Source: Escherichia phage vB_EcoM-ZQ1. Taken from it: a DNA stretch of 64,000 nt. Below the pieces are notes generated by a model that did not search any database, was not told the origin of the DNA, and saw only the letters and a program-made list of their open reading frames with translations. The DNA lies in sequence record MW650886.1. One strand, given 5' to 3'. Every line of letters begins with the position of its first letter. Position 1 is the stretch's first letter. The position numbers were made by a program, and so were the translations under genes. Shown piece after piece: positions 2,666 to 54,978 of this stretch.

Positions 2666-3324
2666 CAGATACTCCCAAAATCACGACAGAGGAATGCCAT
2701 CACAGCCTGGTCTACTGTTAGGCCGTGAGACTTCATCATACCCGCAGCCACCGTAGGGAACAAGTCTTTATGTCGTTGACGATGGTCATGAACTCTCTCC
2801 CACTTCTCGACCACCAGACTTTCATTGAAGTCCACACCGCCGTTACGTGATTTAACACGAGCGATACACGTTTCAAGAGGAGTGTCCATAAAGAGCACAA
2901 CCAATTCACGTGGTGGGCGTGTCAGACGGGGGATCCAAGAACTCAATAATGTGGATGGAATGATACCTTCGAAAATCACATCATATTTCAAGTATTCTGG
3001 TTGGTCAGCAATAGACAACGCGAACAACATCTGCTCAGTGTCCTTCAGGGAATCAACCCCCTTGGACTTCGACTTGTCATATTTACCGATACAGACCACG
3101 TTGAACGAAGGACAGACAGTCAGCATGACCTTGCCGTTATGGGTCACGACATACGCCTGAGGATCCCTCTCCGCCAGCTGAGACGGCACAGTGGATTTAC
3201 CGCTACCATTGGAGCCTTTGACGTAGTAGATTTGCCCTCGTGCTGGGTAGATCCCCTTTACGACGGGTGGTTTAAAGAATGTGTGGACGGGGCGCTTCAT
3301 CAGCCCCTTCAGGGAGTAGGACAT
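2665..3324 (-). CDS. P-loop kinase (nucleotide or DNA-base kinase candidate)
   Basis: Walker A GSNGSGKST; ATG re-set to MSYSLKG because the listed first codon is TTG and an SD (GGAG) precedes the ATG; its stop overlaps the TS-family gene start. Confidence 0.5.
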   Translation of the reverse strand: MSYSLKGLMKRPVHTFFKPPVVKGIYPARGQIYYVKGSNGSGKSTVPSQLAERDPQAYVVTHNGKVMLTVCPSFNVVCIGKYDKSKSKGVDSLKDTEQMLFALSIADQPEYLKYDVIFEGIIPSTLLSSWIPRLTRPPRELVVLFMDTPLETCIARVKSRNGGVDFNESLVVEKWERVHDHRQRHKDLFPTVAAGMMKSHGLTVDQAVMAFLCRDFGSI

Positions 3325-3333
3325 AAACTGCTC

Positions 3334-3368
3334 CAATAAACAAAAGGAGCTGCTATTATAGCAGCCCC
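3334..3368 (-). terminator. intrinsic terminator
   Basis: GCTGCTA-TTA-TAGCAGC hairpin followed on the minus strand by TTTTGTTTATT. Confidence 0.5.
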
Positions 3369-3399
3369 TTCATCTATTGAACAGTTTCTGAACTTAAAT

Positions 3400-4236
3400 T
3401 TACACAGCTTTCGCTTCAGCCAGAGCCTGTGGAAGCCATTCATTGATCGCCTTAACCAGAGACTCAGCATCAGACTCTTTGATCTTCTGACGTTTGGTGA
3501 AGGACTTGCCGTTCACATACAGACTGAAGCCCCAGCCACCGGAAACGATAGGCGCAACGTCGACATACGTATTGGTGCGGGCGTGAAGGTTTTCAGGGTT
3601 AGCCAGTTCGGTGACCGGGAACTGGAACCAACGCATGTCTGGGTTCACGTAGCTCAGGAACACGCTGGGAACAACACCAGCTTCAATCGCCGCCAAGACC
3701 GGACCGTGATCAGAAGCGCGAGCCACGTCAACCATTTCCTCACGTTTGGTGTGACGGCGTTTACGCTCTACCAGCGCCGCCTGCGGGGTCAGGGTCTTAC
3801 CCTTCGATGCTTCTTTCAACATAGAAGACGCCAAGGAACCGATTTTCGCGTCGGACGGCTGATTGCCTTCTTCCAGCGCCGCGTTGACTGCATCTTCAAC
3901 CGCGTCTACCGGGGCGTCGGACACTGAGGCTTCACATGCATCGGCAGAGATCGGTGCTTCAGCATCAATAGTTTCAGCGACTTTCAGGGATACTTCAGCT
4001 TGGGCTTGCTCTTGGGCTTGCGCCAGAGCCTGCTGAGTTTCTTCCTTCTCTTCGGCGCTCAGACCTTCAATCAGTTCGAAGCCGTTGGCAGCCTGAAGAA
4101 CACCTTCAACCATACGGCGCAGGGTAACGTTTCCGATGATCAGACCTGCTTCTTTGATTTCAGCCTGAATAGCAGCAACGTCTTTGCCTTCAATTTCAAT
4201 TTTGGTTCCAGAATCCACATGAAGAATATATGACAT
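3400..4236 (-). CDS. hypothetical protein (acidic, Ala/Glu-rich)
   Basis: 278 aa ORF with ATG and AAAGGG SD; sigma70-like promoter upstream; hairpin terminator downstream. Confidence 0.5.
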   Translation of the reverse strand: MSYILHVDSGTKIEIEGKDVAAIQAEIKEAGLIIGNVTLRRMVEGVLQAANGFELIEGLSAEEKEETQQALAQAQEQAQAEVSLKVAETIDAEAPISADACEASVSDAPVDAVEDAVNAALEEGNQPSDAKIGSLASSMLKEASKGKTLTPQAALVERKRRHTKREEMVDVARASDHGPVLAAIEAGVVPSVFLSYVNPDMRWFQFPVTELANPENLHARTNTYVDVAPIVSGGWGFSLYVNGKSFTKRQKIKESDAESLVKAINEWLPQALAEAKAV

Positions 4237-19843: not shown

Positions 19844-20638
19844 TTAACTGAAACTCTTGTATGCTGCTGCGAGCTTCTTGTCGTACTGGTTCTTGGCATA
19901 CGCCGGACCATTATAGCGCCGTGCAAATTCAGACCAGTTCTTGTCCTTCAGAGCCTTCCAGAGCTTGGCGTCAGCCTTGATGAACTTCACGAATGCCATC
20001 AAATGAGCACGTTCTCCTGTCAGGAAGTCGTTGAACATCTCCTTGGCGTTGGCATATCCACAGACCTGGCAGTTGAATCCCATGATCTGGAAGAGACCGT
20101 AAGAGGCGCTCTCGTACGCACAATCCTCATCGATGTTGATGGCCGCATGAAGTCGATCCAACTCCGCGTCGCCTCCCGTGTACCCGCCTGCGGAAGGACT
20201 GACCAACGTCGGGTACATATGTCCCATGGCATTCGCCCGAGCCTGTCCGAACTTCGCCATCAGCTTCTTATACATGATGTGACGCTCAAATAATGTCTTG
20301 ATCTTACCTGACTTGGTGAAGCCCGTGCCGCGCGACTCAACCTGATTCACCGCCTTGACAGAGGCAAGGTCAACACCCAGATCATTAGCAGCATCAATCA
20401 GGTCTGACTCAGTTAAATGATCCTGATGGGCGTCTCCGGCGTTGCGAATAGCATAGGAGGTCTTTGGACCCACGATACCATCAATGACAAGCCCCGCACC
20501 CGCCTGAACAGTCTTGACGGCGTTCTCTGTTGCCTTACCAAAGATGCCGTCAGCGACGAGGGTGAAGCCGATTTTGTTGAGGCTATCCTGAAGTGCCTTC
20601 ACTTCAGTACCACGGTTGCCAAATTTTAGAATGGCCAT
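19844..20638 (-). CDS. endolysin (N-terminal peptidoglycan-binding domain, C-terminal muramidase-like domain)
   Basis: PG_binding_1-like N-terminus (GNRGTEVKALQDSLNKIGF...DGIFGKATENAVK); listed start is TTG, re-set to ATG MAILKFG with GGAGG SD. Confidence 0.55.
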   Translation of the reverse strand: MAILKFGNRGTEVKALQDSLNKIGFTLVADGIFGKATENAVKTVQAGAGLVIDGIVGPKTSYAIRNAGDAHQDHLTESDLIDAANDLGVDLASVKAVNQVESRGTGFTKSGKIKTLFERHIMYKKLMAKFGQARANAMGHMYPTLVSPSAGGYTGGDAELDRLHAAINIDEDCAYESASYGLFQIMGFNCQVCGYANAKEMFNDFLTGERAHLMAFVKFIKADAKLWKALKDKNWSEFARRYNGPAYAKNQYDKKLAAAYKSFS

Positions 20639-28044: not shown

Positions 28045-28683
28045 TTACGGCGTCGGATTCACAACCGGAATGTGGGATCGAATACCTGCGATGATGTCCT
28101 TCAGCCGAGGATTCCATCCACCCACCAAACGGGGGAGAGCGATAGCGCCAGGCTGGACCAAAATGATGTCGCTGCCTGTGATATTGTGCTGAGGGAACTG
28201 AGCAAGGTACTGCTCCATGGCGACACCCTCATCAATCAGAACAGGACCGACATCAGATGACGCGTAGGTTGCACCCAGACCGTCAACGCCCCATGCCAAG
28301 ATACCCCAGTCAGGGATGTTGGCTTCAGATGTGATGGTGAATCCAAACACGGTGTTCAGCGAAGTAAAGGAATAGACATCGTGGGTGATGTCATACACCA
28401 GATACCCCTTGGCCAGCATATCGGCAAAGATCGCGTCCGTATCGCCAACAGCCGGAGTCGGCACAGTAAACAACAGCTCGCCATCAGGAGGAGCAGGATA
28501 CGTGCCGAGGGCATAGAGGCACCATGCATCAATGCACTTCTTAATGAACGCCTCTGGCGCGACATAATCAGCAAGGCGAACCGTACCTGAGTACTCTGAT
28601 ACGATAATGCCTTCCTTCGCACCCTGTAGAGCAATGAAGACCAAGATATGTTCATATCCGGCCTGAGATGGAGTGATGTTCAT
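28045..28683 (-). CDS. hypothetical protein
   Basis: Start re-set to MNITPSQ (TAATG overlap with the upstream gene). Confidence 0.45.
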   Translation of the reverse strand: MNITPSQAGYEHILVFIALQGAKEGIIVSEYSGTVRLADYVAPEAFIKKCIDAWCLYALGTYPAPPDGELLFTVPTPAVGDTDAIFADMLAKGYLVYDITHDVYSFTSLNTVFGFTITSEANIPDWGILAWGVDGLGATYASSDVGPVLIDEGVAMEQYLAQFPQHNITGSDIILVQPGAIALPRLVGGWNPRLKDIIAGIRSHIPVVNPTP

Positions 28684-29297
28684 TATCTTGTCCTCTTCAG
28701 TTTCTCTATTGTGTGCTTGTTCATGGCGATCACCTGAGGATCTACCTCGGAGATGGTCCGGCCTTCGAAAGACACACATTTCTGAAGATATTTAGCTTTC
28801 TTCACGACGTCGGCAGCATAAGCGTTCGATGCAGGATTACGGGCGAAGCCAGCATTGTAAGAGGAGAGGGATTTGCGGATATTCTGATTGTGATAGGTCA
28901 GCCAGAACTGCATCTCATCGAGGGCGGCTTGCGCGGCATATTCTTGGTCGGTCAGCAACTTTATGGCGACATTGGCATAGCACTTGCGATTCTTACAACC
29001 TTCGCGATCACCAACTGTCTTCACCTTGTTCTGAAAGGCTCCCATGTTGGCCGCCTTGAGACCGTATCGCATTGACACTACATCTTCACCAGCGCGGCTC
29101 TCTCGCCAAGATATGGCGGCCAGAGTGTAGCCAAGATCTTGTGTCTTGCCTACGTGATAGGCGGTTGCCATCGTATTAAGTTGTTGCTCGGAGAAATTAT
29201 AAACACATTGACTTGTATTTTGGGAAGCGTGCACATTCCCGCTGGCAATGGTAAAGGTCACGGACAAGGCCATGGCCTTCAACGTTGTCATCGTCAT
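28683..29297 (-). CDS. secreted lytic transglycosylase-like protein (SLT domain)
   Basis: Signal peptide MTMTTLKAMALSVTFTIASGNVHA; AISWRESRAG...GAFQ resembles the SLT catalytic ES...GLMQ motif. Confidence 0.45.
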   Translation of the reverse strand: MTMTTLKAMALSVTFTIASGNVHASQNTSQCVYNFSEQQLNTMATAYHVGKTQDLGYTLAAISWRESRAGEDVVSMRYGLKAANMGAFQNKVKTVGDREGCKNRKCYANVAIKLLTDQEYAAQAALDEMQFWLTYHNQNIRKSLSSYNAGFARNPASNAYAADVVKKAKYLQKCVSFEGRTISEVDPQVIAMNKHTIEKLKRTR

Positions 29298-38375: not shown

Positions 38376-39038
38376 TTACACCTCCACCGCGTGAGACTTC
38401 AGGAGTTCATCAATCTCTTTCTGTCCCATGTATGAGAACGGGGTGCGCTGGTAGAACGCCCAGAGTACTAACTGGACAACAGCACGGGAACGGGTTTCGG
38501 CCGTCATCACCAGGCCACTGAAATGAGGAGACTCAGCTGTCCATTGTATATCTTCGCCCAGGTCTTGATTACAGGTCACCGAGATGCGGAACTTGTTGCA
38601 CAGATTGTCGACTTCTTTGTACGCATCGGTAGACACACGAAGTTGTTCCGCATGTACCCACGGAGTTGTGATGATTCTTTCACCCAACGTCTTTTCTGAA
38701 ACGAACCAATCAATAGATTGGGTAAACTCGCTGAAATGGTCGATACGATAAATGCAGTCTCCCCCTTCCATAGAACGCATGGCATGATAGCGAGCGTCGA
38801 TTTCGTTGTTGTGCATCGCGTTGAAGTCGATGAACACGCGACGCGCCAGCACAACATCTTCTGGTTGAAGTGCCAGGAAATCGTTCAGGCGGCTATAATG
38901 GAGGATATTGGAACCGTCGTGGCCACGTGTGCAATATGCGTAATGGCTACCGATACGGGCGTGGGCAATATAAGACAACGGGGCGAAGAATAATCCGTCA
39001 GGATCAGGACCGACGATAATAGAATAAAGTTTTTCCAT
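38376..39038 (-). CDS. hypothetical protein
   Basis: Start re-set to MEKLYSII, preceded by the conserved ACTATATCATG start context. Confidence 0.45.
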   Translation of the reverse strand: MEKLYSIIVGPDPDGLFFAPLSYIAHARIGSHYAYCTRGHDGSNILHYSRLNDFLALQPEDVVLARRVFIDFNAMHNNEIDARYHAMRSMEGGDCIYRIDHFSEFTQSIDWFVSEKTLGERIITTPWVHAEQLRVSTDAYKEVDNLCNKFRISVTCNQDLGEDIQWTAESPHFSGLVMTAETRSRAVVQLVLWAFYQRTPFSYMGQKEIDELLKSHAVEV

Positions 39039-39094
39039 GATATAGTCACTCAAATGAAAGGGCAGCTTTATGATAAGCCGCCCGAGGTTATTGA

Positions 39095-39964
39095 TTATTG
39101 GAAATCGCCAACATACATGTTCAGCTTGTCGTCCCAATTCAGAACGACACGGATCGTTCCGGTATCTTCTGGGAAGGTCAGTTTGTCGCACATGGCGCGA
39201 TTAACATAAGTCCCACTCTGGTTCACGTTGTAGTCCTTGCCTTGCATGATACCGAAACGCTTGAAGTCGCGAGTGACCATCATGTTCAGAGTTGTCCAAG
39301 GGATTGCATCGCGCAGGGCTTTGCACAGGACGATCTTGCCATCCGACCTGAACGACACAAACAGCTCGTTGGCGACACGACGGCGAGTAGGCGGTTCAAG
39401 TTCACGCAGGGAAATGAATTGTGAATTCTTTACCTTTTCTGCCAGCGCCTGTACTTCTGTTGGATCCGGCTTGAACGGCTCCACTGAAGAGTCAGACTTC
39501 ATCACAACGTCACCCTTGCGCTTCTCAACCAATTGCTCCACAGCCTTTTGACTCACGGGCGGGAGGTATTTGGACTCAGGAACAACCGCTGGCTTGATGA
39601 CAGGGCTTGCATCTGGTTTCGCCTTTGGGGTACTCCGAGCCGCACGCAGCTTTTCCTGGGCTTCCAGAATGCGCTCTTGACGAGAAAGTGGAGCCTTTGG
39701 GGTGATCTTCGTACTGAAGTCAGAAACGCCGACCCAGTCACCCTGGTCATTACGCTTGGCGACCAGAGTCAGTTTGTGAATGATACCCTGAAGTTTGCTC
39801 TCACGTAAGTTGTCGGCATACCAGAACTTCGCGCCCATCTCGAACTTCTCGGCGAAGATCACGCGAGCGTCTTCGTGTACCAACATAACTTTGGCTGCGT
39901 TGGGGGCAAAAGCCTTATTCTTTTCGATAATCGCCGCAGCGATTGTTTTGGTCAGGAGCATCAC
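39095..39964 (-). CDS. hypothetical protein
   Basis: 289 aa ORF. Confidence 0.5.
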   Translation of the reverse strand: MMLLTKTIAAAIIEKNKAFAPNAAKVMLVHEDARVIFAEKFEMGAKFWYADNLRESKLQGIIHKLTLVAKRNDQGDWVGVSDFSTKITPKAPLSRQERILEAQEKLRAARSTPKAKPDASPVIKPAVVPESKYLPPVSQKAVEQLVEKRKGDVVMKSDSSVEPFKPDPTEVQALAEKVKNSQFISLRELEPPTRRRVANELFVSFRSDGKIVLCKALRDAIPWTTLNMMVTRDFKRFGIMQGKDYNVNQSGTYVNRAMCDKLTFPEDTGTIRVVLNWDDKLNMYVGDFQ

Positions 39965-40000
39965 GGTGTATTCCTTCAGTTCACAATGTAGGGCTAAATT

Positions 40001-40330
40001 TTAACCCGAAACTTTATTTTGAAATCCGACAAAGTCCTGGGCAATCCCCCGGCAATACATCAGGTCTTTCTTCGTTTGTGGACTGTTGTCAGCCGCAGTC
40101 AGCATCATGGGAAGGTCCAGCGCATTCTCTATCTGATCAACACTGAACAGATCAAGGCGCTTCAGCTCTCCCTCGAAGTCAGACAGTAGGATAGATGTGT
40201 CTTTGTCATCTGGGTGGAACTGCTGATACGTCTCCATCCATGCCACACATGTGTTCAGTTTGGACGGTGGCGCGGCGTTTACACACCCGGCTATCAGTAC
40301 CAACAAGAGCAGGATTTTACATTTCATCAC
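40001..40330 (-). CDS. lipoprotein
   Basis: N-terminal MMKCKILLLLVLIAGC lipobox; ATGA-coupled to the upstream gene. Confidence 0.5.
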   Translation of the reverse strand: MMKCKILLLLVLIAGCVNAAPPSKLNTCVAWMETYQQFHPDDKDTSILLSDFEGELKRLDLFSVDQIENALDLPMMLTAADNSPQTKKDLMYCRGIAQDFVGFQNKVSG

Positions 40331-41013
40331 TCGTTCTCCTTCATCATATTGTCGCAGTCAACACGAGTCTGCTGGAGTTCGCGCGACATGCGGGGATCAT
40401 CAAGGTTCACGCTCAGATTCGTGGCCAGGTCTTTCAGACCGTTCTGAACCCTGTCTTCAAAGTAATAATCGTTCTCAACCAGCCAGGCTCTGAGACCAAG
40501 AGCGCGGGTGCGCCATTCCTTCTTCAGGACGCGATCAGAGGTCTGCGTAGCGCTGTATTCGAATACTTTGACGCACTGGTTGCCATCGTTGATGAGGTTC
40601 AGGTGGCGGCGACCAACCTGCACACCCTTCTGTAATGCCGGAGAAGGGAGCGAACGGCACTGTCTTACGGTCATTCGGCCTTGGGTGCCCATTCGGCCAG
40701 TCATGATTAAATCGCCAGCCTCCATGCCTCCACGGTTAAATTCGTCGTCATTGAGGTAGCCCTTGAGGTTATAGGCTCCCTGTTTGTAACGGTTGAACTC
40801 AATTCCGGCATTGACGACAGCAGTGGAGACGTTGCCTGTGTTCCAGAGTTCAGCGAAGTTCTCTATGGAACCAGACTTGTCGATGGCAACCGCCTGGGAG
40901 AACCCAGCACAATAGGAAAGGTCGGACCACAGTTTATCACCTGTGGAGTTCAGCTTGGCAGCGGCGGGTAATGCCAGACCAGCCAGCACAACCCCGAGGA
41001 TTAAACGTTTCAT
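40327..41013 (-). CDS. secreted protein (signal peptide)
   Basis: Start re-set to MKRLILGVVLAGLALPAAA with AGGAGA SD. Confidence 0.5.
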   Translation of the reverse strand: MKRLILGVVLAGLALPAAAKLNSTGDKLWSDLSYCAGFSQAVAIDKSGSIENFAELWNTGNVSTAVVNAGIEFNRYKQGAYNLKGYLNDDEFNRGGMEAGDLIMTGRMGTQGRMTVRQCRSLPSPALQKGVQVGRRHLNLINDGNQCVKVFEYSATQTSDRVLKKEWRTRALGLRAWLVENDYYFEDRVQNGLKDLATNLSVNLDDPRMSRELQQTRVDCDNMMKENE

Positions 41014-41092
41014 GGCGATTCTCCTTATTTCATTGGATGAAATGATAGGCGGCTCACCATGATGAGTAAAGGGATTCAATAAACTATCGTAT

Positions 41093-41542
41093 TCAGAAAC
41101 GGGTATCGCTGACCGTTCTGTATCGCACACCCTGAAACTGTTTAGCGAGTCTAACAAATTCCATCGCTGGTAAATCAACTTTGTAGACCTTCATGCGCTG
41201 TTTGCCGTCCATGTTCAACGCAGCGACAAATCGGTGAGAACCGTCAACAACGTAATTGTCAGAAGACACCCAAACTCGACCCATAGGTTTCTTATTTCTG
41301 ATCTGCTTCATAATCTTCCAGACCTTCATTTTATTGATTTCGTTCTGGGTAAGACGAAGCATTTTGATGGGCACTTGCGCAGCATCTATGGACACGCCGT
41401 TGTCTTCAAGATATTTGTGAAAATCTTCTTGTTTGTCGGCATCGATTTGCGGCATAGAAGAACGAGAAAGCCCGAGGTTCCCAACAGGGATCCTCAGGCC
41501 GTTAATGATGTTCAACCAGTCAATAAAGGATGTAAGGAACAT
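41093..41542 (-). CDS. ParB/sulfiredoxin-like nuclease domain protein
   Basis: 149 aa; NYVVDGSHRFVAA resembles the ParB-like DGxHR motif; GAGGTG SD. Confidence 0.4.
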   Translation of the reverse strand: MFLTSFIDWLNIINGLRIPVGNLGLSRSSMPQIDADKQEDFHKYLEDNGVSIDAAQVPIKMLRLTQNEINKMKVWKIMKQIRNKKPMGRVWVSSDNYVVDGSHRFVAALNMDGKQRMKVYKVDLPAMEFVRLAKQFQGVRYRTVSDTRF

Positions 41543-41574
41543 GACACACCTCGGGATATAGGGTTATCCCTTAG

Positions 41575-41766
41575 TTAGCGCATCCATCGATCCTTTCTCT
41601 CTTTCTCCTTGCGTTCGCGACGTTTCTGGTCGGATCGGAATAACCAATAGAAGAAGTTCCCACCCAAGATGAAAACCACCGCGATTATTACTAGGACACC
41701 CTTCACAATTTCCCAAACCAATTCTTTATCCAAATTATACCTCGTCTTCTTCAGGTCCACCGTCAA
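41575..41766 (-). CDS. small membrane protein
   Basis: 63 aa; one hydrophobic helix followed by a basic tail. Confidence 0.35.
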   Translation of the reverse strand: MTVDLKKTRYNLDKELVWEIVKGVLVIIAVVFILGGNFFYWLFRSDQKRRERKEKERKDRWMR

Positions 41767-42022
41767 TCAGGATACGAGCGGTGTCGAAAGTTTCCCCGCC
41801 CGTGTTCAGCAGCTTGGTTAGATCATCAAGAGTACCGACAGGGCCAAGATCAGATGACCGCGATATAAACTCCAGCATGCCATACAACGCTGTTTGGAAT
41901 CGGCTGTTGTCGATATCGTTCTTTATTACCATCAGGCGCAAGATGTTCTCTGACTGAGTATGGCCAACACACGCCTTGTCTCTGATCATCTCCTTGATAG
42001 AACTTCTCTCTGATGGTGTCAT
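41735..42022 (-). CDS. hypothetical protein
   Basis: 95 aa ORF. Confidence 0.35.
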   Translation of the reverse strand: MTPSERSSIKEMIRDKACVGHTQSENILRLMVIKNDIDNSRFQTALYGMLEFISRSSDLGPVGTLDDLTKLLNTGGETFDTARILIDGGPEEDEV

Positions 42023-42393
42023 AACGTACCCCCGACAGAGATCAAGAACTCTTCTTGCATGGTCTTGACCGGGTGGTGGTTGCGGGTTTCGAACATGAAG
42101 CCCCAGCCACCGTCGGCGACGTTACCAAAGGTCTTGACACCAAAGGACTTCGTCCCGTTGGAGCAGGAATAGATGTCCAGGACGTATGGGCTACCCTGAT
42201 TGTCGATCCCACGATTCACGTCGTCTGATACACAGCGCTCAATCATCTTCCCGTTCTTATACAGAACGAGGTCTTGACCATACGCCTTGAAAGCATAAAC
42301 ACCGTTGGTAGACACTCCGGTGATGACAGGAGGGGCGGAAACAGCAGCAAAGGAAGCGCCTAGCAGGGCAACAGCGAGGATTAACTTTTTCAT
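42019..42393 (-). CDS. secreted protein (signal peptide)
   Basis: Start MKKLILAVALLGASFAAVSA preceded by the conserved leader motif. Confidence 0.45.
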   Translation of the reverse strand: MKKLILAVALLGASFAAVSAPPVITGVSTNGVYAFKAYGQDLVLYKNGKMIERCVSDDVNRGIDNQGSPYVLDIYSCSNGTKSFGVKTFGNVADGGWGFMFETRNHHPVKTMQEEFLISVGGTL

Positions 42394-42445
42394 GATATAG
42401 TCTCTTGGTTTCAAATGGGCGGGGTATGATTACCCCGCCGTGGGT

Positions 42446-42952
42446 TTATAGGGTAACAAGTGATACGGTAAAAACCATCGTCCCGTCTGTTGCCATTTTT
42501 CTTGAAACTGGTATGACGCGAGGCTGGCAGAATATCCATTCTTTCTCCATGGACGCCAAGTCCAGCATATCCATTTCTGATTCATCGCCTTTGTTCACAA
42601 ATTTTTCTAGAGAACCATAGACATTAAGCCCCTCCGGGAGTCTGTTTCGATGTTTGTAACAAATGCGGGCAACAGCTTTGGTTCCGTACGATTTAGAAAA
42701 TTTTTTGGCCACATGCTTCAGTTCACTGAAGCTAAGACAAGAATCCCATGTCTGGAACATGTCGCCTCGTTCAAACATCATCTCTAAACGCGCAACGTCC
42801 TCTTTAGGCAGCCCGCGATAAAGTGTGGTCGTCTGTGGTTCGCGCAATTCTTGCACCAGATCACGGACGGCAGGGGAAACAGTACCGGGGCGCATGATGT
42901 GGGACTTATCATGGACGAGGTAAAATAAATCTTGAATTTGTTGATCAGTCAT
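42446..42952 (-). CDS. hypothetical protein
   Basis: Start MTDQQIQ with AGGAACTATATCATG context. Confidence 0.45.
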   Translation of the reverse strand: MTDQQIQDLFYLVHDKSHIMRPGTVSPAVRDLVQELREPQTTTLYRGLPKEDVARLEMMFERGDMFQTWDSCLSFSELKHVAKKFSKSYGTKAVARICYKHRNRLPEGLNVYGSLEKFVNKGDESEMDMLDLASMEKEWIFCQPRVIPVSRKMATDGTMVFTVSLVTL

Positions 42953-43011
42953 GATATAGTTCCTGCATTTCAAATAGACGGGGTAATCATACCCCGCCCA
43001 AAGTTATAGAA

Positions 43012-43251
43012 TTAGCTGATATGCTTCAGAAGAGCGAAGAGGATCACGGCCTTGGCCTTTACCTTTCCTACGATGCCTGTCTCGACATCAACTTCTTCAG
43101 CAACCCACTCTTTTCCCTTCTTGCTGATGATAACGTCACGACGCTGTGCGTAGACTTCTTTGGTCGCATACACACGACGGAACCCTTTAGCGCGGAGCAA
43201 TCCCCAATTGCGATCAATCTCTACTGAAGTTTCGACCATTTTGTTCTTCAT
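43012..43251 (-). CDS. hypothetical protein
   Basis: 79 aa; promoter-hairpin cassette upstream. Confidence 0.4.
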   Translation of the reverse strand: MKNKMVETSVEIDRNWGLLRAKGFRRVYATKEVYAQRRDVIISKKGKEWVAEEVDVETGIVGKVKAKAVILFALLKHIS

Positions 43252-43302
43252 GATATAATCTTACCTTTCAACCCGGTGAACCCATCGTTCGCCAGTTATT
43301 GA

Positions 43303-43331
43303 ATAATAGGACATTCCTTAGAGGAAGTAAA
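43303..43331 (-). promoter_or_regulatory. early promoter (-35 TTTACT, 17 nt, -10 TATTAT) after a repeat hairpin
   Basis: GGGGTTTACTTCCTCTAAGGAATGTCCTATTAT. Confidence 0.45.
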
Positions 43332-43367
43332 CCCCTAAAAGTAAAAATCCCCAACGTTTGTTGGGGA
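43324..43367. repeat. 44-bp direct repeat, copy 1 (contains an 11-bp-stem hairpin)
   Basis: GAAGTAAACCCCTAAAAGTAAAAATCCCCAACGTTTGTTGGGGA, identical to 43683..43726. Confidence 0.7.
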
Positions 43368-43384
43368 TTTAATAAAAGTTATGC

Positions 43385-43609
43385 CTATTTAATTTCTCGG
43401 CTTGAATTTTCTAGTTCTAATTTTCTTATAGCAGAAATTCTGCCTTCATCAGTTGCGGGAAACTCCCAAACAGCACGACGCCCGTTGTTGGTATCACAAC
43501 TTGCCAGCCAGCAGAAATTAGAGGGGTCCTTAAACAAGACCAATTTAGGGTTAGCAATATTGTTCAGGCAAAATGGGGTGAGGTCAACAACACATGATAT
43601 AGCAGACAT
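43385..43609 (-). CDS. hypothetical protein
   Basis: 74 aa; promoter-hairpin cassette upstream. Confidence 0.4.
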   Translation of the reverse strand: MSAISCVVDLTPFCLNNIANPKLVLFKDPSNFCWLASCDTNNGRRAVWEFPATDEGRISAIRKLELENSSREIK

Positions 43610-43668
43610 AATATATACCTTCTTTCAATGAACGGGAACGCCCCGCTCTATGAATTCAATAATACGCA

Positions 43669-43697
43669 TTTACATTATAGAAGTAAACCCCTAAAAG
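43669..43697 (-). promoter_or_regulatory. early promoter (-35 TTTACT, 17 nt, -10 TATTAT) after a repeat hairpin
   Basis: GGGGTTTACTTCTATAATGTAAATGCGTATTAT. Confidence 0.45.
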
Positions 43698-43726
43698 TAA
43701 AAATCCCCAACGTTTGTTGGGGACTT
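43683..43726. repeat. 44-bp direct repeat, copy 2
   Basis: Identical 44-mer 359 bp downstream of copy 1; each copy precedes a small gene. Confidence 0.7.
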
Positions 43727-43729
43727 CTG

Positions 43730-44053
43730 TTATTTGCGCAGGGCAACCACGAGTTCAGCGAGTTCACCCATGGTCGGGTCATCGCCTTTACTACCCAGCC
43801 AACCGTCGTCGATTTCGACCTGAAACTCTTCTTCTAGTTCCATTACGATTTCGATGGCATCCAGTTCGTCACCACCGAGGTCTTTCTTGGTACGGAGGCC
43901 AGCCAGCTTGTCCAGGGCGTCCTCGTTCTGAGATGCCACGTCGTCCAGCAATTTGCGCTTGTCATCGTCACGCCACAGATCCATATTCAGATTGTCAGTG
44001 GCGTACTGAGCCAGATGACGCATGACTTCAACATATGTTGGTTTACTGCTCAT
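43730..44053 (-). CDS. acyl carrier protein-like protein with Ser-to-Glu at the phosphopantetheine site
   Basis: DLGGDELDAIEIVMELEEEFQVEIDD aligns with E. coli ACP [26 protein letters not shown]; the DSL serine is Glu here. Confidence 0.55.
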   Translation of the reverse strand: MSSKPTYVEVMRHLAQYATDNLNMDLWRDDDKRKLLDDVASQNEDALDKLAGLRTKKDLGGDELDAIEIVMELEEEFQVEIDDGWLGSKGDDPTMGELAELVVALRK

Positions 44054-54606: not shown

Positions 54607-54978
54607 ATGAAACAGTTCGTAGGATTATACGCAGTTGGGTGTAGTAAACCAGACGCCAAGCTCACCACAGATCAATTTACCACAGGCACCCCAGTTTATC
54701 TGACACAGCTGGCGTCAGACAAGAACTTACCATCGGAGCCGCGATTTGTCCCTCTGGGGTTGATGACAGGTCTGAAAGTTGGTCTGTATGTCGGTGTGGT
54801 GACGTTTGAAAATGGCGTCGAAGCGAAAGTTCTGCCATTCAAATTGGGCAGCGAAGAAATGCTGAAGGATACGATCAGTGAACACCTGAACTCACAATGT
54901 CTGGCTTCTCTGGACAAATTGTTCGGTGTAGTAACTGATGAAGGCGAGGCCACCCCCGCCTATGTGAATCAAGATTAA
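54607..54978 (+). CDS. hypothetical protein
   Basis: 123 aa plus-strand ORF, divergent from gene 45; sigma70-like promoter about 120 nt upstream. Confidence 0.45.
   Translation: MKQFVGLYAVGCSKPDAKLTTDQFTTGTPVYLTQLASDKNLPSEPRFVPLGLMTGLKVGLYVGVVTFENGVEAKVLPFKLGSEEMLKDTISEHLNSQCLASLDKLFGVVTDEGEATPAYVNQD

Follow-up and report, generated by a model that had tools for sequence, protein, structure and literature searches.

A coupled pair of exported proteins conserved in Ackermannviridae phages, the variable genes beside it, and the basis of its spanin label

The coupled genes B and A

The window analyzed here is a stretch of 64,000 nucleotides of Escherichia phage vB_EcoM-ZQ1 (MW650886.1), a phage of the Ackermannviridae that is Agtrevirus/Kuttervirus-like, and the subject is a cluster of exported and membrane proteins encoded at 40001-42414, in particular two overlapping genes, here named B and A, whose relatives have been annotated as spanins. 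When positions 39000-44000 were searched by megablast, 275 phage records were matched, all of them Ackermannviridae. The best matches, at approximately 97.6% identity, were Enterobacter phage fGh-Ecl02 and Escherichia phage AV101, and Salmonella phage vB_CECAV_050 (Agtrevirus) covered 100% of the query. The genes discussed here, A to G, are on the minus strand like all genes of the region, and their neighbours are replication and recombination genes of the T4-like kind (helicase, HU, RNase H, gp55, gp46/47, clamp loader and UvsW/UvsY).

Export and membrane signals were called by rule-based sequence analysis together with conservation among homologues, and synteny and signals were compared in a set of 27 related loci. 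The cluster described in the original prediction is real: its genes were all located, with corrections needed for C and D (see below), and it is set among replication and early genes approximately 20 kb from the endolysin gene (19844-20638). In the rule-based scan, about 6-8 of the 89 non-overlapping open reading frames (ORFs) of the window had an export or membrane signal, and the permutation p value for finding four such genes inside six consecutive genes was approximately 0.005-0.02; the clustering of exported proteins is modestly non-random.

Gene A (40001..40327, minus strand) encodes a small all-alpha exported protein of 108 amino acids (aa), labelled o-spanin or Rz-like spanin in relatives, and is preceded by an AAGGAG ribosome-binding site. 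The N-terminus reads MKCKILLLLVLIAGC followed by VNAAPP, with the layout MKCK-ILLLLVL-IAGC, that is, a basic n-region, an h-region and a lipobox within approximately 25 residues. The lipobox, LIAGC with Val at position +2, is the one named in the original prediction and its pattern is canonical ([LVI][ASTVI][GAS]C), so that A of the window lineage is predicted to be an outer-membrane lipoprotein. A competing signal peptidase I (SPase I) site, VNA·A (the raised dot marks the point of cleavage), is found three residues past the lipobox. The mature part has two conserved Cys residues, C27 and C92, and was modelled as five helices, with pLDDT values of 62-88 per 10-residue block, in residues 240-329 of a fusion model in which a Gly-Ser linker of 30 aa connects mature B to mature A and for which a genome-paired alignment was used.

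The lipobox Cys is present in only 6 of the 36 full-length representatives of A clustered at 90% identity, all six being at least 96% identical to the window protein, and in 7 of the 27 genome loci; in a near-identical allele it is replaced by Ser. The loci without a lipobox include those of Vi01-type phages and of Klebsiella, Dickeya and Serratia phages. Where the Cys is missing the signal ends in an SPase I site (VHA·A, AYA·A, VLA·A, VMA·S, ALA·V or AQA·A) that directly precedes the conserved mature N-terminus (A/T)PxxKLNxC, and AXA signals are also found in the two most distant A homologues (32-33% identity) and in the Serratia-phage type. By this comparison the lipobox on A is a lineage-specific gain.

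Gene B (40327..41013, minus strand; 228 aa), labelled i-spanin in Kuttervirus Marshall, encodes a predicted two-domain, all-alpha periplasmic protein with a Sec signal peptide. The starts chosen in the original prediction for B (41013) and for gene F (42393) are correct, since both have strong or acceptable ribosome-binding sites (a strong AAGGAG in the case of B) and conserved N-termini. B begins MKRLILGVVLAGLALPAAA·KLN, and the cleavable signal peptide claimed for it is borne out by an L-P-A-x-A sequence that is invariant in 15 homologues (positions L15, P16, A17 and A19), the h-region of approximately 12 aa being variable. The uncharged stretch as a whole is 16 residues long including a Pro, with P-A-x-A as its final four residues, and the distant B homologues (31-36% identity) all have AXA-type signals as well, ending in AWS·E, ASA·A and ANA·G.

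The AlphaFold2 model of B, built from an 18-sequence alignment (pLDDT 84, pTM 0.73), consists of ten helices of 5-31 residues in two bundles with a conserved Pro-rich loop between them, and residues 1-21 are disordered. B has four conserved Cys residues, one pair in each bundle, and A and F have one conserved pair each, which fits DsbA-dependent periplasmic folding. Fold searches with B gave no informative match; Foldseek against BFVD returned B's own family only.

B was found in 270 phage records, full length throughout and with at least 80% identity. An exhaustive hidden Markov model search of 1.84 billion representative proteins with the B profile produced 11 hits, all of them Ackermannviridae-like or fragments, and the contigs that carry the two full-length distant homologues are Ackermannviridae-like, with the C-B-A order and the overlap preserved. 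As judged from these searches the B family is restricted to Ackermannviridae. In contigs of the Serratia-phage type (L025 and L026, 3986-4366) a short form of B is encoded that has the N-terminal bundle only (126 aa, 106 aa when mature). It still precedes an overlapping A homologue, and the presumed partner of A would thus be the N-terminal domain of B.

B and A are translationally coupled, as the stop of B overlaps the start of A by 1 or 4 nucleotides in every one of the 27 loci; in the window the codons involved are the TGA of B and the ATG of A. The order C-B-A is likewise retained in all 27 loci and constitutes a core block, and B-A is counted among the 114 core genes of Vi01-like phages (PMC10892097). 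Sequence searches of Pfam, NCBIfam and PDB gave no significant match for A, B, C, F or G, and in an hhalign comparison of A with B the signal peptides aligned and nothing else.

A promoter-like site of the sigma-70 type, TTTACT-N17-TATCAT (41042..41070, minus strand), is located 29 nucleotides upstream of the B start. The motif was matched five times in the window, where 0.03 matches would be expected, and all five are on the coding strand; no late-type motif TATAAATA was found near B-A. The strict motif stands ahead of B in the window and in 15 related loci, and in six Taipeivirus-like loci TTTACT is kept with the -10 variant TACTAT. In one locus (L012), where an HNH gene has been inserted between C and B, the promoter-like site stays with B. 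Insertions of 815-923 nucleotides between C and B are present in this locus (3072-3900) and in L021, and the L012 insert encodes a homing endonuclease of the HNH/NUMOD type.

Gene C (41093..41542, minus strand; 149 aa), always immediately upstream of B, encodes a basic cytoplasmic protein with weak ParB/Srx likeness. The original prediction described it as a protein with a ParB-like nuclease domain. The motifs LRLTQ and DGSHR are invariant and phrog_1033 was matched at E=0.002, but the likeness is slight: Pfam ParBc_2 was matched at E=0.08 in one of six members, and no PDB hit was obtained. The rule-based analysis detected no export signal in C or in E.

The variable genes beside the core block

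Gene F (42019..42393, minus strand; 124 aa) encodes a predicted periplasmic protein with two conserved Cys residues that is probably beta-rich, judging from its sequence. Its N-terminus is MKKLILAVALLGASFAAVS·APPV, the signal peptide ending in AAVS·APPV, and the cleavable signal that had been claimed for it is conserved in homologues. F is present in 104 of approximately 270 Ackermannviridae records, with identities down to 39%. The first 31 nucleotides of the B and F coding sequences (40984-41014 and 42364-42394) are 77% identical, encoding MKRLILGVVL and MKKLILAVAL, which suggests a shared or copied signal-peptide module.

The start of gene E (41735..42022, minus strand; 95 aa, acidic) overlaps the stop of F in an ATGA, and E is detectable in most of the 27 loci at identities down to 25%. 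Gene D (41575..41733, minus strand) encodes a bitopic membrane protein with a strongly basic C-terminus, for which the positive-inside rule gives an N-out/C-in topology; it is present in about half of the relatives. The original prediction had described it as a single-helix protein of 63 aa. One hydrophobic helix is indeed present, but the protein is 52 aa long and the TTG start at 41766 was overcalled, because the codon at 41733 is ATG in locus L007 and GTG in L017, and stops are found nearby upstream in L012, L013 and L016. D was also considered as a holin, and this was rejected, since the one hit obtained (Pfam Phage_holin_2_4) had E=0.06 and many relatives lack the gene.

Gene G (42446..42952, minus strand; 168 aa) encodes an ADP-ribosyltransferase-like early protein that matches the PHROG "RNA polymerase ADP-ribosylase" at E=1e-15. 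It was found in 7 of the 27 loci, and D and G are each present in about a quarter to half of the loci. G is bracketed by two copies of a 50-nucleotide direct repeat (42390..42439 and 42949-42998), each immediately upstream of the ATG of F or G, which is composed of a perfect 9-bp stem-loop (GGCGGGGTA..TACCCCGCC) and the gene-start region; no clear -35/-10 promoter or T-run was found in them, and the element might serve in RNA processing, as a translational operator or as a site of recombination. Farther upstream, a Cys-rich ORF of 74 aa (43385-43609) stands between two 73-nucleotide direct repeats that are 84% identical (43298-43370 and 43654-43726) and that both consist of a stem-loop terminator with TTTACT-type promoters after it. 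A 356-bp unit with this ORF is absent from AV101 and fGh-Ecl02, and because the difference is the exact repeat spacing it fits gain or loss by recombination between cassettes of the PeSL kind. PeSL cassettes, which combine a stem-loop with an early promoter, flank variable ORFs in the hyperplastic regions of T4-type phages (PMC2839356, PMC4122927). The same combination is present here, as repeated stem-loops and early promoters (TTTACT-N-TATNAT inside the 73-nucleotide repeat) stand beside variable ORFs, and as in the described cassettes the flanked small ORFs are present or absent among close relatives. The differences are that PeSL cassettes were described in Straboviridae and that the 50-nucleotide pair has no obvious -35/-10 elements.

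Comparison with Kuttervirus Marshall (L001) over 39095-43251 revealed a mosaic. B, A, D, a 289-aa gene downstream and a 79-aa gene (43012-43251) are 97-99% identical to their Marshall counterparts, whereas the interleaved C, E, F and an acyl carrier protein gene are 71-82% identical, which indicates recent recombination of short modules between genera. Collectively, the cluster is not one operon-like system but a conserved core block (C-B-A) with a variable accessory region at its side, since C-B-A is family-wide, F, D and G occur in subsets and E is divergent.

The spanin label of the B-A pair

The original prediction had overlooked that A and B already carry a lysis annotation. In the records of Marshall, to whose gp95 and gp94 A and B of the window are 99% identical, the pair is annotated as o-spanin and i-spanin, as it is in PP35, and the A family is PHROG 3843 (phrog_3843), labelled "Rz-like spanin". 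In the survey of Kongari et al. (2018, PMC6139136; SpaninDB) the Marshall pair stands as a singleton among the spanin families and has the longest periplasmic length of all (300 residues), and Maynard, Vi01, SFP10, CBA120, ECML-4, PhaxI, AG3 and a Dickeya relative are listed as spanin-less. A and B of Maynard (KF669654), labelled "lipoprotein" and "hypothetical" there, are identical to those of Marshall (KF669653), showing that one and the same pair was taken as a spanin in Marshall and as absent in the "spanin-less" Maynard within a single survey (PMC6139136). The source of the Marshall label is a genome announcement from an undergraduate course that contained no lysis experiment. Later papers repeat the label via PHROGs, and in SFP10 (NC_016073) even an A without a lipobox is labelled "Rz-like spanin" in RefSeq. 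The label has thus been propagated to homologues that do not have the defining feature. Our literature searches found no experimental report on lysis genetics or transcriptomics in Ackermannviridae, and none in which the pair was needed to disrupt the outer membrane or complemented lambda RzRz1.

We compared the pair with the features of spanins given by Kongari et al. 2018 (PMC6139136). The likeness to two-component spanins such as Rz/Rz1 of lambda and PseT.3/PseT.2 of T4 is evident in the layout: a larger upstream gene with a hydrophobic N-terminus is followed by a small downstream one whose product has a signal of the export or lipoprotein kind, the start and stop overlap, and adjoining or overlapping genes, as expected for an i-spanin with its o-spanin, occur in 27 of 27 loci. 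As in the separated architecture of T4 PseT.3/PseT.2, the pair is encoded among early genes, and periplasmic Cys residues are present in B-A.

The likeness ends with the anchors and the architecture. The lipoprotein signal expected of an o-spanin, a lipobox with its Cys and a residue other than Asp at +2, is present in A of the window and is missing in the family at large, the Cys being absent from 20 of 27 loci and 30 of 36 representatives. By the rule-based analysis B has no type II inner-membrane anchor, as its 12-aa h-region is followed by P-A-x-A·K, a short signal of the cleavable type with an invariant AXA, whereas an i-spanin has an anchor of 19-20 residues. The controls behaved as expected: in the T4 i-spanin PseT.3 a stretch of 19 uncharged residues, with no AXA, precedes a charged coiled coil, and the T4 o-spanin PseT.2 has the lipobox LVGC. 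In place of an extended coiled coil, B has a periplasmic part of 209 aa for which the model gives ten short helices forming a bundle, and A has a folded helical domain of 90 aa where an o-spanin is short and Pro-rich. With both anchor features and the architecture failing, we rejected the identification of B-A as a canonical spanin. Since B lacks an inner-membrane anchor and A in most cases a lipid anchor, the pair cannot bridge and fuse the membranes in the manner of Rz/Rz1, and the weakening of the label leaves room for a periplasmic role outside lysis, such as exclusion.

Possible roles of the pair

We favour, tentatively and with somewhat less than even confidence, a reading in which the locus is made up of three adjacent units, namely the B-A core pair, the syntenic gene C and the accessory genes F-E-D and G, and in which the pair is periplasmic, disulfide-bonded and active near the outer membrane. 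B would be cut by SPase I and released as a soluble periplasmic protein, and A would be soluble in most relatives. In the window lineage A would be lipidated by Lgt/LspA and, after sorting by Lol, attached to the outer membrane at its inner face; that such a tether is tolerated suggests a site of action close to this membrane. As the most likely though still rather doubtful mechanism, the two proteins, made from early infection from their own sigma-70-type promoter, would form a binding module in the periplasm close to the outer membrane, and the binding of a conserved peptidoglycan hydrolase or envelope component would result in exclusion or in resistance to lysis from without. C would be linked to the pair only by synteny, and F-E-D and G would be variable accessory cassettes.

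The T4 protein Spackle is periplasmic, serves in superinfection exclusion and inhibits the tail lysozyme gp5, and its fold is alpha-helical in published structures. By analogy, B-A could be a Spackle-like protective or exclusion module that seals the infected envelope, which we regard as possible although rather doubtful. Like Spackle (gp61.3), A is small, acidic and Sec-exported, has two Cys residues near the ends of the mature chain and is encoded among replication and early genes. The difference is that Spackle acts alone, whereas A is coupled to a partner of 228 aa. The Spackle signal (MKKFIFATIFALASCAAQPAMA·G; L029, 2759-3052) has a lipobox-like LASC before its SPase I site, in the same way as A has LIAGCVNA·A.

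Several results weigh against a protective role. A and B have no likeness, in sequence or fold, to Spackle, Imm, RI or any lysozyme inhibitor. When A was aligned with T4 Spackle by hhalign (alignments A4 and A3), the signal peptides aligned only, with probabilities of 3.6% and 21%, and the alignment of B with Spackle was also confined to the signal peptides. The B+A fusion model reached a pLDDT of 63 and a pTM of 0.36 with no confident docking and with lowered confidence for B, and it is from the translational coupling that a B:A complex is inferred. A Foldseek search of PDB with the fusion model gave no match below E=1, and no Spackle structure was among the hits. The conservation of B (82-100% across enterobacterial genera) and the core status of the pair look like a housekeeping function, for example lysis, and no other spanin candidate has been found in these phages (PMC6139136). 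Nor is the early location an argument against lysis: the T4 spanin genes are also among the early genes, so that the location is compatible with a lysis role, and we have dropped it as evidence against a spanin.

The strongest of the alternatives, though in our view an unlikely one, is that B-A is a non-canonical lysis factor, an anchor-less pair that performs or regulates the last, outer-membrane step of lysis or times lysis, and that might attack a tether or component of the outer membrane once the peptidoglycan has gone. This would agree with the very strong conservation of a family-wide core pair, with the record of Ackermannviridae as spanin-less and with the lipid anchor acquired by A in one lineage, a change that points to action near the outer membrane. 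It would also agree with an endolysin that has no signal peptide; the endolysin gene (19844..20638, minus strand), encoding a peptidoglycan-binding domain and a muramidase, stands alone approximately 20 kb off. However, no enzymatic or membrane-active signature and no fold match is found in the pair, both proteins being helical bundles, acidic or neutral, that lack a cationic amphipathic segment; a soluble factor made early would need some restraint, and nothing ties B-A to the endolysin or to a holin. That the pair is specifically the missing outer-membrane step of the "spanin-less" Ackermannviridae, an anchor-less and optionally lipid-tethered periplasmic device that breaches or detaches this membrane otherwise than by Rz/Rz1-type fusion, we consider more unlikely still.

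The original prediction had combined the cluster with an SLT/lysozyme-like exported protein (28683..29297, minus strand) into one programme of envelope remodelling, acting in exclusion, lysis inhibition or receptor masking. The signal peptide of this protein was confirmed (GNVHA·SQ); the protein is T4 Vs.1-like (phrog_600), its Pfam SLT match of E=4e-4 is below the gathering cut-off, and its AV101 counterpart has been annotated as T4 Vs.1-like (PMC9409062). A single programme shared by A, B, D and F with the SLT-like protein would account for the presence of four exported or membrane proteins in six genes, the single strand, the early-type region with sigma-70-like promoters and the export of the SLT-like protein as well. 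We hold it to be improbable, as the 27 loci show a mosaic: B-A is universal, F is confined to the subset given above and D and G are patchy, G is bounded by a stem-loop repeat of a kind associated with modular shuffling (PMC2839356), and C and E are not exported. Furthermore the SLT-like gene is 11 kb away from the cluster, and its family also occurs in T4, which has no B-A.

Receptor masking by a lipoprotein of the Llp/Cor type was rejected on separate grounds. A resembles T5 Llp and Cor in being a small phage lipoprotein that is expressed separately from the lysis genes and, in the window lineage, predicted to reside in the outer membrane, but the lipid anchor is not conserved in the A family, the gene is not beside a receptor-binding protein gene and there is no homology. 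Ackermannviridae use tailspikes directed against O-antigen or capsule and not a protein receptor.

The least probable explanation, and a very remote one, is the canonical two-component spanin that bridges the periplasm and fuses the membranes once the peptidoglycan has been cleared by the endolysin, for although the gene order and overlap mimic the separated T4 PseT.3/PseT.2, the lipobox of the window A is canonical, the periplasmic parts contain Cys residues, Marshall, PP35, PHROG 3843 and SpaninDB all carry the label and no other spanin is known in Ackermannviridae, it is contradicted by the lipobox-less majority of A, by the short, Pro-containing stretch of B with its invariant AXA end, by the helical bundle, and by a label with no experimental basis that was not applied to Maynard, Vi01, CBA120 or SFP10.

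Ackermannviridae (Vi01, CBA120, Kuttervirus, Agtrevirus, Taipeivirus and Limestonevirus) are in wide use against Salmonella, E. coli O157, Klebsiella and Dickeya, both for biocontrol and in therapy. The only spanin annotation of the family rests on a lipobox that is confined to one sublineage, and correcting the label re-opens a question that Kongari et al. posed, namely how the outer membrane is disrupted by these phages. The correction also defines a family-specific and highly conserved periplasmic pair with no structural relatives, which, if the pair is indeed an exclusion or protection module as we tentatively favour, would bear on the design of cocktails that mix Ackermannviridae.

Outside the cluster, an ORF of 123 aa on the plus strand (54607-54978; phrog_4255) begins MKQFVGLYAVGC·SKPD and has a lipobox-like AVGC after a short hydrophobic stretch, and it may be a second lipoprotein candidate of the window.

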